From NCBI GenBank assembly GCA_963836235.1, contig CAWIIP010000004.1:224001-288000 (forward strand): 64,000 bases of DNA. The letters run 5' to 3'. Below the pieces are notes generated by a model that did no database searches, was not told the DNA's origin, and saw only the letters and a program-made list of their open reading frames with translations. This DNA is from an uncultured Pseudomonadota bacterium. Its GTDB lineage: Bacteria > Oederibacteriota > Muellerivitia > Muellerivitales > Muellerivitaceae. Of this stretch, positions 23,375 to 49,170 are shown piece by piece. Every line of letters starts with the position of its first letter. The stretch's first letter is position 1. Position numbers and translations under genes: made by a program.

Positions 23375-25793
23375 ATGGTCATGGCGGATTCAAGCGAATG
23401 GGTGAAAAGATTCGAGGAAGTGGGTATGCGGGACATCCCGTTGGTGGGCGGCAAGAATGCCTCCCTGGGTGAAATGACACAAAATCTCGCGAAAGCGGGA
23501 GTGAAGGTGCCCGAAGGTTTTGCAATCACCTCCAAGGCCTATTGGGATATTTTGGAGCAAAACCGTTTAGAGGGCGCGCTGGATCACCTGGCCGCAGAAG
23601 CGGAAAAGAGCCCGAAAAAACTCAAGACCGTGGGAAAGGCCGCGCGGGGTCTCATGCTTCACGCCCAATTTCCCATGGAACTCACATTAGAAATTCGCCG
23701 TGCCTATCGGGACCTTTGCGAGAAAGCAGGGGACGGGAATTTGGCGGTGGCGGTGCGTTCGTCCGCTACCGCGGAGGATTTGCCGGACGCTAGCTTCGCG
23801 GGACAGCAAGAAACCTTCCTAAATGTCAGGGGGGAAAAGGCGTTGTTGGACGCCTGCCGAAAATGTTACGCCTCTCTCTTCACCGACAGGGCCATCAGTT
23901 ACCGCATCGAGAAGGGTTATTCTCACACGAAGGTGGCCCTGTCCATCGGCATCCAGCGGATGGTGCGCTCCGATATCGGAAGTTCAGGGGTCATGTTTTC
24001 CATCGATACTGACAGTGGCTTTCCCAAGGTCGTCCTCATCAACGCGGACTATGGACTGGGGGAAACAGTGGTACAGGGCGAGGTGGATCCGGACGAATAC
24101 ATGGTCTTCAAACCCCTTTTGGAAAATCCCGGATCTGATTCCTATTCTGGAAAAAAAGCGCGGGGGCAAGAAAGTCAAAATGGTTTACCGCCCGGGGGGA
24201 GAGGGCACCCAACTTAAAAAAACCAGTTCGAAAGAGCAAACGAGCACCGTATTGACCAATACGGAAATACTCCAATTGGCCAAGTGGGCCGTTCTGGTGG
24301 AAAAGCATTATGGCAAGCCCATGGATATGGAATGGGCCAAGGACGGGAAGACGGGGGAACTTTACATGGTTCAGGCCCGGCCTGAGACCGTCCAATCCCG
24401 CAAAAAGGCCGGGGTATTAAAGAAGTATAGTTTGAAGGAAAAAGGCCAAGTTCTTCTGACTGGAATGGCGGTCGGGGACGGCATCGCCTCGGGCCAAGTG
24501 TGCCGGGTGAAGAGCGCCAAGGAGATCGCCAAATTCAAGGAAGGTTCCATCCTCGTGGCCGAGATGACCGATCCGGACTGGGTGCCCATCATGAAAAAGG
24601 CCAAGGGCATCATCACGGACCATGGAGGCCGCACTTGCCACGCCGCCATCGTGAGCCGGGAGCTGGGCATCCCCGCGGTCGTGGGCACGGCCCGGGCGAC
24701 CCATATCCTCAAAAGCGGGCAACCGGTCACCCTTTCCTGTGCCGAAGGGCTGCAGGGCGAGGTGTATCAGGGTGAACTAGCCTTCGAGGAAAAGGAGATC
24801 CGGCTGGATCAAATGGCGGACACTCGGACGCAGATATTGATGAACATCGCCAGCCCCGACGCGGCTTTCCAGTGGTGGCACCTTCCGGTCAAGGGAATCG
24901 GCCTGGCCCGGATGGAATTCCTGGTAAGCGACACTATCAAAGTTCATCCCATGGCCCTAGTGAATTTCCAAAAGTTAAAGGACAAGAAAGCTAAACGGCA
25001 AATCGCCGAAATCACCCAAGGCTATAAAGATAAAACCGAATATTTCGTGGATAAGCTTGCCCGGGGACTTTGCCAAATCGCGGCTACCCAGTATCCCTAC
25101 CCGGTTATCGTGCGCTTGAGCGACTTCAAGACCAATGAATACGCCAACCTCATCGGCGGGGCGCCCTTCGAGCCAAAGGAGGAAAACCCCATGATCGGCT
25201 GGCGGGGCGCGTCCCGCTATTACAGCCCTGGCTACCAGCCGGGTTTCGAGCTGGAATGCAAGGCCTTGAAGCGGGCGAGGGAAGTGATCGGGCTGGACAA
25301 TATCGTTGTCATGGTGCCCTTCTGCCGGACCACGGGGGAAGCGGATAAGGTGTTGGCGGTCATGGAAAGCCAGGGGTTGAAGCGGGGGGAGAAGGGTTTG
25401 AAAGTTTACGTGATGTGCGAGATACCCGCCAACGTCATCATGGCCGAGGAATTCGCCAAGCGCTTTGACGGCTTTTCCATCGGTTCCAACGACCTGACCC
25501 AATTGACCCTGGGGGTGGACCGGGACTCGGGGGTCCTTAGCAAGCTTTTTGACGAGCAGGACGAGGCGGTCAAGCGTTCCATCGCGGAAGTCATCCGCCG
25601 CTGCAGGGCCACCGGCACCAAAATCGGCATCTGTGGCCAAGCCCCTAGCGATCATCCCGATTTCGCGGCTTTTTTGGTGGAATGTGGAATCGATTCCATT
25701 TCGCTCAATCCCGATTCGGTGGCGGCGGCTTTGAAAAGTGTGGCGGAACAGGAAGCGAAACAAGAGAAAGGCCGGGGGAAGGGGGCGGCATGA
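23375..25793 (+). CDS. ppsA: phosphoenolpyruvate synthase, split by a +1 frameshift at CCC 24128-24130 (probably sequencing error)
   Basis: VGGKNASLGE, RSSATAEDLPDASFAGQQET, GGRTCHAAI, FSIGSNDLTQL across two ORFs. Confidence 0.9.
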
Positions 25794-26871: not shown

Positions 26872-27213
26872 ATGGCGGATGAAAGAAACTCTTCGGAAAA
26901 AAGTCAAACCGGTTTTTTTCAGACGGCGGGGAAAGCCTTCGATTTTTTGGCCGCTATCCGGATTTTTTTCACCGAAATCAAGGAGTCGATCCTACAGCAT
27001 TGGGATTGGTTCCTTCGCCGGGTGGAGTATCTTTTTGTCGTTTATTTGTGGATTTCGGTCGGCATTCTTTTGATGGTCCTTGGAATATTCGACCTCTTAA
27101 TCGACTTCTGCCGGATCTCACGGGGAGTGGTATTTTCTCTCGGCGGATTGTTGATTTTACTGGTCGCGGTCATTTTTTTACAGGCGGCCAAGATGAAAAG
27201 ACGCGGAAAATAA
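26872..27213 (+). CDS. two-TM membrane protein (YqjE/holin-like)
   Basis: Two TM helices; next to a DUF883-like gene. Confidence 0.55.
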   Translation: MADERNSSEKSQTGFFQTAGKAFDFLAAIRIFFTEIKESILQHWDWFLRRVEYLFVVYLWISVGILLMVLGIFDLLIDFCRISRGVVFSLGGLLILLVAVIFLQAAKMKRRGK

Positions 27214-32790: not shown

Positions 32791-33489
32791 ATGCTGACTA
32801 TCAACAAGAACCGGACGACCTCATTTTCGGCAACGCCCCGCAGTTTTCTCGCCACGACGAATATCTTTAAAGCCGTTCCCGTTGAGGCTTTGAGGGAAAT
32901 TGAGCGCCGAGTGGTTGAGAAAAAATTCCTCAAGGGCGCGTCTCTTTTTCTGGAAGGCGATCCGGCCCAATATGTGTGGTTTGTCAAGGAAGGACATGTG
33001 AAGGCGGTCATCAACGCCCCCAATGGGCGCTGCCAGACCCTTTGCATGGTGGGCCCCCAAAATATGTTTGGCTCCTGCTGTTCTTTAAACGGGAACGCCT
33101 ACACTTGCAATGGGGTTGCCGAAACCGATGTCACCGTTGTTTCTTTCCCCCTGTCCGATTTCCTCGCTTTGATGGGGCGCTATCCCCAAATTTCCCTGGC
33201 CGTGGTGGCGCATGTTTCCAAGCGCCTACGTCATTCCAAGGACATGCAAGCCTTCGAACAGGAAAGCGTCGAAAAGCGAATCCTGCATGTTTTGGTGGAT
33301 ATGGTGGGGGAATTCGGGAACACCATACCTTTGACCCGCCGGGAGATCGCGGAAATGGCCGGCACGACCGTGGAAACTTCCATACGCACCTTTTCCAGGC
33401 TGGAGGGGGAGGGGCTGGTTTCCACCGTTCGCGGGAAAATCACCGTTAAAAGCCTTCAAGTCTTGAACGACTATTTGGAAAAGGAGTGA
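32791..33489 (+). CDS. Crp/Fnr-family transcriptional regulator
   Basis: cNMP-like barrel containing 5 Cys; HTH LTRREIAEMAGTTVETSIRTFSRL. Confidence 0.9.
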   Translation: MLTINKNRTTSFSATPRSFLATTNIFKAVPVEALREIERRVVEKKFLKGASLFLEGDPAQYVWFVKEGHVKAVINAPNGRCQTLCMVGPQNMFGSCCSLNGNAYTCNGVAETDVTVVSFPLSDFLALMGRYPQISLAVVAHVSKRLRHSKDMQAFEQESVEKRILHVLVDMVGEFGNTIPLTRREIAEMAGTTVETSIRTFSRLEGEGLVSTVRGKITVKSLQVLNDYLEKE

Positions 33490-38955: not shown

Positions 38956-40744
<1,789 letters not shown>

Positions 40745-45146: not shown

Positions 45147-47120
45147 ATGATGAGCCTGATCGAAGCCAAGGACCTTTTCAAAATCTATCACCTGGGCACG
45201 AATGAGGTGCGGGCGCTGGATGGGGTTTCCCTGACGGTGGAAGAGGGTGAATTCCTCGCCATCATGGGTCCTTCCGGGTCCGGCAAGTCCACCATGCTCC
45301 AAATATTGGGCCTCCTGGACACGCCTGATTCGGGTTCCTATAAGCTGTTGGGAAAGGAAGTTTCCACCCTTACTGAGGATGAACTGGCGGTCATCCGAAG
45401 CCAGACCCTTGGCTTCGTGTTCCAGACTTTCAACCTCTTATCCCGCACCAACGCCCTTGAAAACGCCGCCTTGCCCCTGCTTTATGCCGATCCCCATGAT
45501 CCCCACGACGATCCTAAAATGCTTTTGGAAGAAGTGGGCTTGTCTAAAAGGGAAGACCACCGGCCCAACGAGCTTTCGGGAGGACAACAACAGAGGGTGG
45601 CCCTGGCGAGGGCCCTGGTCAACCGGCCCAAACTGATCATGGCGGACGAGCCGACGGGCAACCTGGATACCAAAAGCTCCCTTGAAATTATCGGGCTCCT
45701 GGAAAAACTGAACTCGGAAGGCATCACCGTCATCATGGTCACCCATGAGGAGGATATCGCCCGGCACGCCCACCGTATTATTCATATGCGGGATGGGAAA
45801 ATCGTCGAGGACCTCAAAGGTTCCGGTTCCACCCTCAAAACCGCGGAAGGGCGGACGCCGAAAGTTTCGGTTGAAACAAAGGCCTTTACCGCCTTCAACC
45901 CTAAAAGGGTGGAGGAGTATTTTCACCAGGCTTTCCGGGCTCTGATGGCCAACAAGGTCCGGGCGGCCCTTTCGTTCCTGGGCATCCTCATTGGGGTGGG
46001 GGCGGTTATCACCATGCTGGCCATCGGGACGGGTGCCCAAAAATCCATGCAGGAGCAAATGGCCTCCCTAGGAACTAATTTAATCGTCCTGGTTCCGGGG
46101 TCCATCCAGGTGGGGGGAATCCAGCAGGGGACCGGCTCCTGGAGCCGCATCCTGCCGCAATACGCCCTGGCCATGGCCGAGGTTCCCATGGTCAAGGCGG
46201 TAGCCCCCGAAGTCACGGGGCGGGTCCAAACGACTTACGCGGACCAGAACTGGAACACCCTCTTGAGCGGCACCGCGCCCAGTTACGCCGAGATGAGGGA
46301 TGCCGAACCGATCTACGGGCGTTTTATCAATAACGACGACGTGGCCCGGCGCAAGAGGGTATGCCTGCTGGGCATGACGGTCATTAAACAACTTTTCGGC
46401 AAGGCCAATCCCATTGGAGAAGAGATAAAAATAAACCGGGTGAGTTTCCAGGTGATCGGGATATTACCGGTCAAAGGCTCCAACGGCTTCCAGGACCGGG
46501 ACGACCTGATCCTGGTGCCCTATACCACCGCTATGCACCGCCTTTTCGGAAAGCTTTACGTCAACCAGGTGGATATCGAGGTGGACAAACTGGAAGATAC
46601 GGACGCCTGCGGGGACGCCGCTAAGGCGTATATGATGAAACTCACGAACATCCCCAACCTGCCGGGCAACGAGAACGCCTACATGGTCCGCAATATGGCG
46701 GACATCCAAGCCATGTTCACCAACATGACCAAGATTATGACCCTGCTTTTATCCTGTGTGGCGGCCATCTCGCTGTTAGTCGGGGGCATCGGCATCATGA
46801 ACATCATGCTGGTTTCGGTCACCGAGCGCACGAAGGAAATCGGCCTTCGCAAGGCCATCGGCGCACGCCGCCTGGACATTCTCTCCCAGTTCCTGATCGA
46901 GGCCATGACCATCAGCCTCATGGGAGGAGTGGCGGGAATCCTGGTGGGATGGGGTTCTTCCATCGCCATTTCCCTCTTCGCGGGATGGCAAACCATTATT
47001 ACGCCCTTCTCCGTCATCATCTCCACCCTTTTTTCGGCGGTGGTGGGAATCGCGTTCGGCCTTTGGCCCGCCTATAAGGCATCACGCCTGAGCCCCATCC
47101 TGGCTCTTCGTTACGAGTAG
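45147..47120 (+). CDS. macB: MacB-like ABC transporter (ATPase-permease fusion)
   Basis: GPSGSGKS, LSGGQQQR, GGIGIMNIMLVSVTERTKEIG. Confidence 0.9.
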   Translation: MMSLIEAKDLFKIYHLGTNEVRALDGVSLTVEEGEFLAIMGPSGSGKSTMLQILGLLDTPDSGSYKLLGKEVSTLTEDELAVIRSQTLGFVFQTFNLLSRTNALENAALPLLYADPHDPHDDPKMLLEEVGLSKREDHRPNELSGGQQQRVALARALVNRPKLIMADEPTGNLDTKSSLEIIGLLEKLNSEGITVIMVTHEEDIARHAHRIIHMRDGKIVEDLKGSGSTLKTAEGRTPKVSVETKAFTAFNPKRVEEYFHQAFRALMANKVRAALSFLGILIGVGAVITMLAIGTGAQKSMQEQMASLGTNLIVLVPGSIQVGGIQQGTGSWSRILPQYALAMAEVPMVKAVAPEVTGRVQTTYADQNWNTLLSGTAPSYAEMRDAEPIYGRFINNDDVARRKRVCLLGMTVIKQLFGKANPIGEEIKINRVSFQVIGILPVKGSNGFQDRDDLILVPYTTAMHRLFGKLYVNQVDIEVDKLEDTDACGDAAKAYMMKLTNIPNLPGNENAYMVRNMADIQAMFTNMTKIMTLLLSCVAAISLLVGGIGIMNIMLVSVTERTKEIGLRKAIGARRLDILSQFLIEAMTISLMGGVAGILVGWGSSIAISLFAGWQTIITPFSVIISTLFSAVVGIAFGLWPAYKASRLSPILALRYE

Positions 47121-47179
47121 GCTCGAGGCAAGAGCCGACTGGTGATTTAATCGCGGATTTTAAAAACCAATTTTTTGAA

Positions 47180-47195
47180 TGTGATTCCCATCATA
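47180..47195. promoter_or_regulatory. Crp/Fnr-type box upstream of the ncRNA
   Basis: TGTGATTCCCATCATA; TATCAA(T) at 47217. Confidence 0.65.
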
Positions 47196-47228
47196 GTTCT
47201 ATTTCCGGTACTGTTGTATCAATAGAAC

Positions 47229-47638
47229 TGTAGAAGGTGTTCCAAGGTGAGGCACCCCTTGGGTGCGGCGGGGACTGAGGTCCCAAACCGAAAAGGAGCA
47301 CCGCCGTCGAAAGCTGGTGGAACTGGTAAGGGTTCCGGTTTTAAGCGCCTTATAGGCCGCTGCGGGGACTGAGGTCCCAAACCGTGAAGGAACCCGGCCT
47401 GGCGAAGCCGGTGAGATCCGCGGGATTTGGATGTCAACGGTTATGGCTTCTTGGTTGAGGTCCTGAAGCTGGGACTTTACGAAGTATTTTTTGGAGGTAT
47501 GTCGGAACAATCGTCGGAAAGGTTCACGGGTTGCGTTTCAATGACGCGGGGCAAAGGCCCAAAACTAACAAAGAACCTTGCTGAAGATGTCGCTGATGGT
47601 GGTTGAAGCCCCGGGGTACAGGGTCCCGGGGCTTTTTT
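47229..47638 (+). ncRNA. putative structured ncRNA with two tandem domains (family not recognised)
   Basis: Exact 23-nt repeat GCGGGGACTGAGGTCCCAAACCG at 47268 and 47362, covarying closing stems, own promoter and terminator, no convincing ORF. Confidence 0.6.
47606..47638 (+). terminator. intrinsic terminator
   Basis: AAGCCCCGGG...CCCGGGGCTTTTTT. Confidence 0.85.
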
Positions 47639-47683
47639 ATTTATGGGCAACGACTCCAGGGTTCTTGCCTATAAAACCTCGAA

Positions 47684-47699
47684 TGTGACCCCGGTCATG
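47684..47699. promoter_or_regulatory. Crp/Fnr-type box
   Basis: TGTGACCCCGGTCATG; GAAAAT at 47721. Confidence 0.65.
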
Positions 47700-47785
47700 T
47701 CCCATGTGGAAGATGAGAGAGAAAATTACATAGAGAAGTGAGAAAGAATTTATATTTCACGGGCTTTTTGGATTGAGAGGGAGCC

Positions 47786-48502
47786 ATGAAAATCGGAAGA
47801 AAAAACTGGGGCGCAAAGCCTATATTCAAGAACCGGGAAGAAGCGGCCTATCTCCTGGCTCGGAAACTATCGCCCTACCGGAAATGGAATCCCCTGGTCT
47901 TGGCGGTGCCCCGGGGCGGCGTCCCCATGGGAAAGATCATCGCCGACGAACTTCATGGGGAATTGGACGTGGTTTTGGTCCATAAACTTCGCGCCCCAGG
48001 TGACCCGGAATACGCCATTGGAGCCGTATCCGAGGGAGGAACCCTTTACCGTCCGCCCTTTCCCCAGCATCATTGGATCCCCAAGGATTACCTGGAACGG
48101 GAAATCCAAAATGAGCTTCACGCCTTGGAACAGAGACGAAAACTTTATACACCGCATCATATGGCCCATAGTCCCGCCAACCGGATCGTCATTCTGGTGG
48201 ATGACGGCATCGCCACGGGTTCCACCTTATTGGCGGCTATGGGGGAATTGGATACTCATAAGCCGGCCAAAGTGGTGGTAGCGGCCGCGGTGGCCCCTCC
48301 AGAGGCCGTTGAGAAATTAAAGACGGAAGCGGATGAAGTGTTGATTTTGACCGTGCGTCCTGATTTTCAAACGATCGGTGAGTTTTTCAACGACTTTTCC
48401 GAGGTTCCTGACACCGAGGTCATCCGGATATTGGCGGAGGAGTCGCGTCCAAAACCGGTTTTTTCGGTGGACGCCATTCCTTTGCGAGGGAGAATTCGAT
48501 GA
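47786..48502 (+). CDS. phosphoribosyltransferase (Rv0571c/Rv2030c-like)
   Basis: LAVPRGGVP, VILVDDGIATGST. Confidence 0.9.
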   Translation: MKIGRKNWGAKPIFKNREEAAYLLARKLSPYRKWNPLVLAVPRGGVPMGKIIADELHGELDVVLVHKLRAPGDPEYAIGAVSEGGTLYRPPFPQHHWIPKDYLEREIQNELHALEQRRKLYTPHHMAHSPANRIVILVDDGIATGSTLLAAMGELDTHKPAKVVVAAAVAPPEAVEKLKTEADEVLILTVRPDFQTIGEFFNDFSEVPDTEVIRILAEESRPKPVFSVDAIPLRGRIR

Positions 48503-49170
48503 GCGAGCATTACGCCTGGGAAAAACCTTTCTTCAAAAACCGGGAGGAAGCGGCCGAGCTTCTATCCGGAAGGCTGGTGGATTACAAAGGGCAAAATCCC
48601 TTAGTATTGGCCATTCCCCGGGGAGCGGTACCGATGGGTCGGATTATTGCCGATAGCTTGGGCGGGGAATTGGACTTGGTCCTCGTTCACAAGGTGGGGT
48701 CGCCCGAAAATCCGGAATCGGCCTTGGGGGCGGTGGGGGAAAACGGGGAATTTTACGAGGCGCCCTTTGCCCGGTCCTTGGGCTTTTCGGAAGAATCGCT
48801 TCAAAAAGAAATTCGGATTCAAACCGAAGCCTTAAAACAAAAACGAAAGTTTTATCTTCCCGGCAAGCCCATTTACAAAGCGGAAGGGAGGGTGGTCATC
48901 CTGATGGATGATGGAATCGCCACGGCTTCCACCGTCATGGCCGCCATCCGGGATATTCGCCACAAAGGGCCCTTAAAGGTGGTGGTGGCCTCGCCCGTAG
49001 CGCCCCCGGAAGCCGTGAATATCATCCGCCAGGAGGCCGATGAGTTGGTGATATTGACCGTCCAAACCGATTTCGCGATGGTCAGTGAATTTTTCGAGGA
49101 CTTCCGGCAGGTAAGCGACGAGGAAGTGTTAAAAAACCTAAAAAGCGTGGCGTCCTCTATCGGAAAATAA
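48499..49170 (+). CDS. phosphoribosyltransferase paralog
   Basis: LAIPRGAVP, VILMDDGIATAST. Confidence 0.9.
   Translation: MSEHYAWEKPFFKNREEAAELLSGRLVDYKGQNPLVLAIPRGAVPMGRIIADSLGGELDLVLVHKVGSPENPESALGAVGENGEFYEAPFARSLGFSEESLQKEIRIQTEALKQKRKFYLPGKPIYKAEGRVVILMDDGIATASTVMAAIRDIRHKGPLKVVVASPVAPPEAVNIIRQEADELVILTVQTDFAMVSEFFEDFRQVSDEEVLKNLKSVASSIGK

Follow-up and report, generated by a model that had tools for sequence, protein, structure and literature searches.

The 64,000-nucleotide (nt) stretch of contig CAWIIP010000004.1 (assembly GCA_963836235.1), hereafter the window, very probably carries at 47229-47640 on its plus strand a gene of its own for a structured non-coding RNA, a real, independently transcribed molecule of a new family and about 360-410 nt in length. 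The RNA is built of three homologous modules of about 65 nt (domains 1 to 3), each of them a three-way junction in which P1 is the closing helix, P1a a short helix, P2 a variable hairpin and P3 a nearly invariant hairpin. This organisation is directly supported by covariation among 15 homologues. The RNA is probably made under low-oxygen or nitric oxide (NO) stress, judging from its promoter.

The element contains an exact repeat, read directly from the sequence. The initial annotation had reported two identical 23-nt strings with two enclosing stems, and these were confirmed. The string at 47268-47290 recurs at 47362-47384, as the core of a longer direct repeat whose 55-nt copies are 78% identical and spaced 94 nt. 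GUGUUCC (47237-47243) pairs with GGAGCAC (47295-47301) around the first copy and GGGUUCC (47330-47336) with GGAACCC (47389-47395) around the second, the 3' strand of each stem beginning 4 nt past its repeat. A 21-nt core was found at only two places in the 3.97-Mb genome, both in the RNA gene, and its reversed-pattern control at none. When folded, the plus strand gave a z score of -2.81 against shuffled sequences (none of 100 shuffles as good) and the minus strand a z score of -2.10.

Fold and covariation of the three modules

Covariation was counted on a model-fitted alignment of the 15 distinct full-length homologues (ten from genomes and five from further metagenome contigs), with 500 shuffles and slid partners as controls. 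For the 46 base pairs of domains 1 and 2, 84.6% of the alignment cells were paired compared with 78.1% in the shuffles, and 23 of the 46 pairs changed on both sides compared with 12.5 +/- 2.0; neither value was reached by any of the 500 shuffles, and slid partners paired in at most 60%. The 28 pairs of domain 3 were 94.7% paired, 11 of them changing on both sides (4.0 +/- 1.4 in the shuffles, 0/500 as high), with slid partners pairing in at most 51%. The tandem covarying domains claimed in the initial annotation are thus borne out above the shuffle controls.

Domains 1 and 2 follow one plan: a 7-bp P1, an asymmetric internal loop (AA opposite GANNR), a P1a of 2-6 bp, the sequence-variable P2, and P3. 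P1 is 93% paired in domain 1 and 90.5% in domain 2, with four pairs changed on both sides in each. P3 is nearly invariant as GGGAC-UGAG-GUCCC followed by AAA, and is paired in 100% (domain 1, three pairs changed on both sides) and 98.6% (domain 2) of cells. It covaries as well, the variants being GGAAC:GUUCC, GAGGC:GCCUC and GGGGC:GCCCC.

One element of the originally proposed fold is not supported. The CGG:CCG pairing drawn around GGAC-UGAG-GUCC is possible in 12-14 of the 15 homologues in domain 1 and in only 12, 6 and 9 of 15 in domain 2; it never covaries and breaks whenever the 3' side changes. More likely, the 3' segment of this pairing would pair instead with the 5' junction as helix P1a, closing a three-way junction. 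P1a appeared in the single-sequence minimum-energy folds of 11 (domain 1) and 12 (domain 2) of the 15 homologues, and its base pairs differ among them (GGU:ACC, GC:GC, UCC:GGA, AUC:GAU, CGGUUU:AAACCG, GCU:AGC, GACG:CGUC). Fixed-column counts for P1a are weak because its register shifts between sequences. A helix that we ourselves proposed for the connector at 47302-47329 is paired in just 42% of cells; single-sequence folds of the connector give two competing small hairpins.

The third module, at 47502-47596, is a more diverged copy that had not been noticed in the initial annotation and that overlaps the 35-amino-acid (aa) open reading frame (ORF) proposed there. It lies inside an extra closing helix. 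Its helices read UCGG:CUGA (P0), UCGG:CUGA (P0b), AAGGUUC:GAACCUU (P1) and GGUU:AACU (P1a), and its P3 is GGGC-AAAG-GCCC followed by AA. G-U pairs, which fit the plus strand only, are frequent, occurring for example in 14 of 15 homologues at one domain-3 pair.

Two covariance models, R1 (domains 1 and 2 of nine sequences) and R2 (the 3' domain), recognise each other's regions. R1 matched the domain-3 region at eight of ten genome loci (E <= 2.6e-4) and at metagenome loci too, while R2 matched domains 1 and 2 in the window's genome, G000 (E of 0.029 and 0.005), and in G001, G004 and G026. The cross-hits are weak and some R1 hits run over the terminator, and they are consequently taken as support for, not proof of, a fold common to the three modules.

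The covarying third module also decides against the alternative that the initial annotation had left open, namely that 47229-47640 is the messenger or leader of the 35-aa ORF at 47499-47606. A GGAGGT does abut the ATG of this frame in the window's genome, and the 35-codon frame is also present in a same-genus genome. The ATG, however, is kept in only two of the 15 homologues (the window and L031) and replaced by non-start triplets in the other 13; the domain-3 alignment has 1-nt insertions or deletions inside the frame; and the ORFs over this stretch vary in start, frame and length (17-101 aa), one homologue having none. For these reasons the ORF is not regarded as a gene. No Pfam match was obtained for the four ORFs that overlap the RNA on either strand, and with base-pair covariation found in the same stretch a coding role is extremely improbable.

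The variable linker before domain 3 (47416-47501) and its homologous counterparts are G/U-rich and C-poor and often end in a GGAGG-like run. The coordinates of all features are given in Table 1.

Table 1. Features of the RNA gene and its surroundings (window coordinates)
Feature	Position	Strand	Details
Crp/Fnr-type box	47182..47193	+	TGATTCCCATCA (TGAT-N4-ATCA); centre 41.5 nt upstream of first conserved RNA base
-10-like element	47217..47223	+	TATCAAT; aligns with TAAAAT/TATAAG/TATAAA of homologues
Predicted transcript	47229..47641	+	~412 nt here, ~358-412 nt in homologues; 5' end predicted
Domain 1, three-way junction	47237..47301	+	P1 47237-43/47295-301; P1a 47246-48/47287-89; P2 47252-57/47261-66; P3 47271-75/47280-84, loop UGAG
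Conserved connector, domains 1-2	47302..47329	+	GUCGAAAGC...CUGGUAA, with GAAA-capped mini-hairpin
Domain 2, architecture as domain 1	47330..47395	+	P1 47330-36/47389-95; P1a 47337-41/47379-83; P2 47345-50/47354-60; P3 47365-69/47374-78
Hairpin, then conserved UGAG	47399..47415	+	47399-403/47407-411; 87.5% paired
Variable G/U-rich linker	47416..47501	+	17-84 nt in homologues
35-aa ORF of initial annotation	47499..47606	+	no conserved coding sequence
Domain 3, with extra closing helix	47502..47596	+	P0 47502-05/47593-96; P0b 47514-17/47581-84; P1 47519-25/47573-79
Domain 3, inner helices	47529..47566	+	P1a 47529-32/47563-66; P2 47533-38/47543-47; P3 47549-52/47557-60
Intrinsic terminator	47605..47641	+	13-pair G+C-rich hairpin (47605-47635), 8 pairs G-C, then U-tract
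Second box	47686..47697	+	TGACCCCGGTCA; upstream of phosphoribosyltransferase gene 47786-48502; separate transcription unit
In-window box starts	23309, 23337, 26805, 34051, 37505, 38905, 45090, 47182, 47686, 50405, 51412

Distribution of the RNA

The homologues came from several searches. BLAST against 61 related genomes gave matches in 13, and eight genomes besides the window's own carry the RNA; short matches in G008, G041, G048 and G050 (24-37 nt, terminator or fragment only) were dropped. Of the phylum's 99 genomes, R1 found the RNA in ten, which without exception belong to the family of the window, where nine of the 30 genomes other than G000 and seven of 17 genera were positive, and R2 recovered the same ten genomes in searches of the family and of the phylum. 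Nine loci came out of a pattern scan of 185,579 species genomes; six are RNAs already found, and the remaining three (L023, L025, L029) scored at most 20 bits with R1 and were treated as chance matches. Scanning metagenome contigs gave seven loci, all with the RNA, among them a duplicate of a genome copy and a copy truncated at its 5' end. All 15 homologues retained have the whole architecture. No match to the RNA was found in plasmid (72,556 records) or phage (50,697 records) collections.

Some weaker matches were set aside. A 21-bit partial R1 match lies in a genome of another family (G077), and a weak R2 match in G015 falls inside an ORF, perhaps one for an MlaD/MCE-like protein, and is attributed to chance. 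R2 also gave weak matches of 20-25 bits at G004:C57 and G026:C11.

Each RNA-positive genome has one RNA locus in the R1 and R2 searches of the phylum, apart from a lone domain-3-like piece in G013. This second element (L063:1501-1592, minus strand, corresponding to G013:C24:491053-491144) scores 25.5 bits with R2 and has its own terminator. Lying 3.4 kb away from the full RNA and immediately behind an ORF's stop codon, it is possibly a single-module paralogue carried in a 3' untranslated region.

Promoter, terminator and putative regulon

The same order of elements was observed along all 15 aligned homologues: box and -10 element, 5' end with the conserved sequence (U/C)GUAGGAA, domain 1, connector, domain 2, a 5-bp hairpin with UGAG, linker, the strongly conserved 3' domain, a variable spacer and terminator. 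Both the promoter box (47177-47194) and the terminator (47605-47635) claimed in the initial annotation are present. A G+C-rich hairpin followed by a T-run was seen by eye in all 15 homologues. Its distance from domain 3 differs among them, with a spacer of anything between about 0 and about 35 nt; inspection of this spacer by eye revealed no conserved anti-terminator.

The 18-nt box at 47177-47194 is repeated at 47681-47698. Its core, TGAT-N4-ATCA, reads cTGATctagATCAt in several homologues, and nine of the 15 have a box with no more than two mismatches whose centre is 40-41 nt upstream of where the model starts. In class II Crp/Fnr-dependent promoters the box is centred near -41.5 from the transcription start. 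By this geometry, transcription of the RNA is predicted to start about 41.5 nt past the box centre. There is no good -35 element, as would be expected for an activator-dependent promoter.

Across the genome there are 316 TGAY-N4-RTCA sites, 61 of them in the approximately 10% of the DNA outside long ORFs, compared with 6-28 intergenic sites for each of seven control palindromes. Around 19 of the 61 intergenic boxes fall within 80 kb around the RNA gene (C4:247-328 kb), a cluster that looks like a regulon island of a Crp/Fnr-type regulator. Two Crp/Fnr-type regulator genes are located in the island (window ~33277-33471; C4:316000-316695), and four of the seven Crp-type helix-turn-helix (HTH) genes of the genome adjoin a box. 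The clustered boxes, which extend from 23309 to 51423 in the window and on to C4:328 kb, often read TATGAY-N4-RTCATAAAGG.

The genes next to boxes, as assigned by Pfam, include those for quinol NO reductase NorB, the ScdA/hemerythrin di-iron repair protein RIC, Hsp20 and a nitroreductase, for further enzymes (two radical-SAM proteins, three Zn-dependent alcohol dehydrogenases, a short-chain dehydrogenase/reductase, nitronate monooxygenase, two phosphoribosyltransferases, fumarase) and for others (DUF2249, a cation-diffusion-facilitator transporter, a SulP/STAS permease, a GGDEF protein, a histidine kinase). The box that follows the RNA in a same-genus genome stands in front of a RIC gene. The gene set points to a response to NO or to oxygen limitation, and it is because NorB, RIC, Hsp20, nitroreductase, radical-SAM and Crp/Fnr genes have the promoter box in common with the RNA that production of the RNA under such stress was given above as probable. 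Control of the RNA by a Crp/Fnr-type stress regulator is accordingly rated as rather likely, and the stress induction suggested in the initial annotation is consistent with this gene set.

Other boxes of the window precede an ATP-synthase alpha/beta-family gene at 38977-40347, which may belong to an alternative ATPase operon controlled in the same way, and two small ORFs at 23542-23793 and 26872-27213 (83 and 113 aa) without a Pfam family, which are putative members of the stress regulon.

Pieces of the RNA in environmental RNA libraries

The stretch was matched in RNA libraries of four studies, covering peat, two soils and freshwater. All fitting contigs lie inside the predicted RNA (47262-47596) and none extends into the flanks; contigs cover neither the flanks nor 47229-47261 and 47597-47640, gaps that carry no weight. 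One contig of 219 nt is 100% identical over 47276-47494. Contigs of relatives (293, 298 and 370 nt) link domains 1 and 2 to domain 3 across the diverged linker, the longest spanning 47262-47596, and thereby hint that the RNA is present as a single complete molecule.

Genomic neighbourhood

At the nine loci examined, the genes flanking the RNA differ in every genus. Upstream neighbours include MacB (in the window), Nramp and an F420-type oxidoreductase. Downstream are a phosphoribosyltransferase (in the window), RIC, LysR, MFS, GH67, an epimerase, a Ser/Thr kinase and two genes of unknown family, and five of the nine are convergent with the RNA (LysR, MFS, GH67 and the two without a Pfam family). 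The varied neighbours and the convergent genes exclude cis-regulation of the downstream gene as the general function, in agreement with the argument of the initial annotation against a simple leader.

In the window the RNA is followed, behind the second box, by tandem paralogous phosphoribosyltransferase-domain genes (47786-48502 and 48499-49170, 53% identical). The same pair follows the RNA in a same-genus genome, with the RIC gene inserted between the RNA and the pair. The neighbour was tested as a partner with PyrR in mind, which is an RNA-binding protein of phosphoribosyltransferase fold. The neighbouring phosphoribosyltransferase occurs in 17 of 31 family genomes, namely in eight of ten with the RNA and nine of 21 without it, and the idea was dropped, the co-occurrence not being tight.

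Just beyond the window, an integrase-like gene (HTH_38 and a weak rve match; L072:283-1263, minus strand, corresponding to C4:288782-289762) stands between two boxes where the box-dense region ends, which may mean a horizontal acquisition of the region.

Possible mode of action

Taken as a whole, the data are best explained by a stress-induced RNA that acts in trans and binds a partner through its three modules, a reading to which a probability of about 0.45 is assigned. The RNA would be transcribed in dependence on stress, and its three reiterated, sequence-conserved P3/junction surfaces would present a fixed multivalent platform to a partner. This partner would most likely be a protein or a complex of proteins, a small molecule being less likely, and once bound it would be sequestered or scaffolded during the stress response. 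That the partner is a protein is put forward tentatively as the mode of action; such a platform is favoured because of the three-fold reiteration of the P3 and AAA surface, the stand-alone gene and the signal-dependent promoter.

Several observations weigh against this proposal. No partner candidate emerged. Known sponge RNAs vary in repeat number, whereas here the three domains are fixed and joined by conserved connectors, which fits a compact tertiary fold, either aptamer or ribozyme, at least as well. CsrA (PF02599; positive controls detected) and Hfq (PF17209) were each found in none of the 31 family genomes, so that two classic partners are out. A strict genome search for copies of the P3 hairpin that might mark protein targets returned this locus only, and a loose regular expression for P3-like hairpins gave about 170 mostly coding matches and was uninformative. 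On the side of expression, six of the 15 homologues have no good box (L033, L035, L036, L045 and L048 have the right half-site only, and in L039 no box stands at the appropriate distance), a generic sigma-70 scan did not call the RNA promoter, and the 5' end of the transcript is a prediction from sequence. The RNA-library contigs are silent on ends, strand and level, and DNA carry-over is possible among them. Finally, the RNA is dispensable: just ten of the 31 family genomes have it, and it is absent from several whose completeness is 98-99%.

The modules could instead be small-molecule aptamers, for a nucleotide second messenger or a redox cofactor, which would make the RNA a sensor in trans or one that gates read-through of its own terminator. 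This is considered unlikely, for all that it has in its favour: the modules are compact three-way junctions of aptamer size with conserved RRC-G before P3, AAA after P3 and GA after P1a, the fixed domain number and conserved connectors suggest packing between domains, and a GGDEF cyclase gene stands under the same box. The glycine riboswitch provides a precedent for homologous aptamers in tandem. However, no expression platform is visible, the variable spacer showing by eye no conserved alternative pairing; the downstream genes are often convergent, and the co-directional one in this genus has its own box; no similarity to an Rfam aptamer was found even at E <= 10; and it is helix P3, not the junction strands, that is most conserved.

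A related possibility, to which similarly modest odds are given, is that the RNA belongs to a new class of large bacterial RNA whose three modules pack into one tertiary assembly of sophisticated biochemical function, either a trans-acting triple aptamer that senses or buffers a small molecule made under NO or hypoxic stress or the core of a ribozyme or ribonucleoprotein. In both cases the fold of the module would be one not described before.

More doubtful still is a base-pairing regulatory RNA, in which the modules would stabilise a molecule whose conserved single-stranded stretch pairs with messenger RNAs or with the 3' end of 16S rRNA. Candidate stretches are ACAAUCG (47508-47514), GGUGAG (47410-47415) and the GGAGG-like run of the linker; AAUCG, part of an internal loop, is identical in all 15 homologues. 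The stand-alone gene with its terminator and stress-type promoter would suit such a role, and the length is about that of the largest base-pairing small RNAs. Yet most of the conserved nucleotides are paired or in junctions of three repeated folds, far beyond what a seed carrier needs, and Hfq was not found in the family genomes.

The initial annotation had itself named a repetitive extragenic palindrome (REP) or miniature inverted-repeat transposable element (MITE) among the findings that would undo its interpretation. That the element is such a repeat, a mobile-element remnant or a plasmid or phage piece without its own function is highly improbable: its patchy occurrence, variable context and position in a region dense in one regulator's boxes with an integrase-like gene nearby would agree with it, but the core is found at this locus only and not in many dispersed copies, the full 360-410-nt architecture is kept with compensatory changes, promoter and terminator, the plasmid and phage collections hold no match, and pieces of it are present in RNA libraries.

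Significance and comparison with known RNA families

Bacterial RNAs of several hundred nucleotides with a complex fold are rare, and past cases have proved to be ribozymes, riboswitches or ribonucleoprotein cores. The RNA described here stands out because one module is repeated three times within it, which is unusual, because about 74 of its base pairs are supported, and because it has a likely regulatory input, a Crp/Fnr-type box in common with NO-detoxification and dormancy-like genes. It comes from a candidate phylum of soil and peat without a cultured member, and its pieces occur in environmental RNA libraries. It offers a testable object both for a new RNA fold and for an RNA layer in the response to hypoxia or NO.

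The initial annotation had not recognised the RNA, and database comparison agrees. Rfam 15 (4227 models, including those for transfer-messenger RNA (tmRNA), RNase P, signal recognition particle RNA, 6S and riboswitches) gave no match at the gathering score in the 64-kb window. A relaxed search (E <= 10) returned at the locus terminator-driven matches only, the best being NsiR1 with 27.3 bits against a threshold of 39, and over 11 homologous loci nothing consistent on the RNA. ARAGORN found no tRNA or tmRNA gene in 47000-47900. None of the titles and abstract openings found for candidate division FCPU426 concerns an RNA, and none of those found for structured non-coding RNAs was relevant; a supplement, or a paper outside this search, may still describe the motif.

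Nor do the defining features of known classes fit. A riboswitch or leader is expected to have a conserved co-directional downstream gene, and the nine loci have nine different genes; these are also mutually unrelated, which sets the RNA apart from ToxI-like type III toxin-antitoxin systems. On inspection, the many GGA loops of sponge-type RNAs are not seen, the P3 loops being UGAG or similar; GGA is mostly in helix strands and connectors, and the number of GGA triplets is about that estimated by hand from base composition.

The nearest architectural analogue is the tandem glycine riboswitch (RF00504), which likewise has head-to-tail homologous three-way junctions with conserved connectors and covarying closing helices. 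The present RNA differs in having three domains and not two, no Rfam hit, no regulated downstream gene and no visible expression platform, and in its junction sequences. CsrB, RsmY, RsmZ and CrcZ resemble it in their stand-alone genes, signal-dependent promoters, intrinsic terminators and repeated motifs for multivalent binding. In contrast to these protein-sequestering RNAs, what is repeated here is not a GGA loop but a three-way junction of 65 nt that includes a conserved helix, the repeats are fixed at three, and no CsrA was found in the family genomes.

As regards physiology, 6S, the mycobacterial Ms1 and the DosR-dependent DrrS of Mycobacterium tuberculosis are abundant stable RNAs of stationary phase or of hypoxia/NO dormancy, and the box gene set with Hsp20, nitroreductase and phosphoribosyltransferase resembles a dormancy regulon. 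The likeness to Ms1 and DrrS is one of physiology, and 6S differs by its one long helix with a central bubble, absent here, with no match to the Rfam 6S model. OLE, raiA, ROOL, GOLLD and HEARO are likewise large, lineage-restricted orphan RNAs with many covarying helices; the RNA has no similarity to their Rfam models, and three-fold repetition of a module is not known to be a feature of theirs. With these analogies being functional or architectural only, and the defining features of no known family present, the RNA is rated as novel, both as an RNA family and in its architecture.

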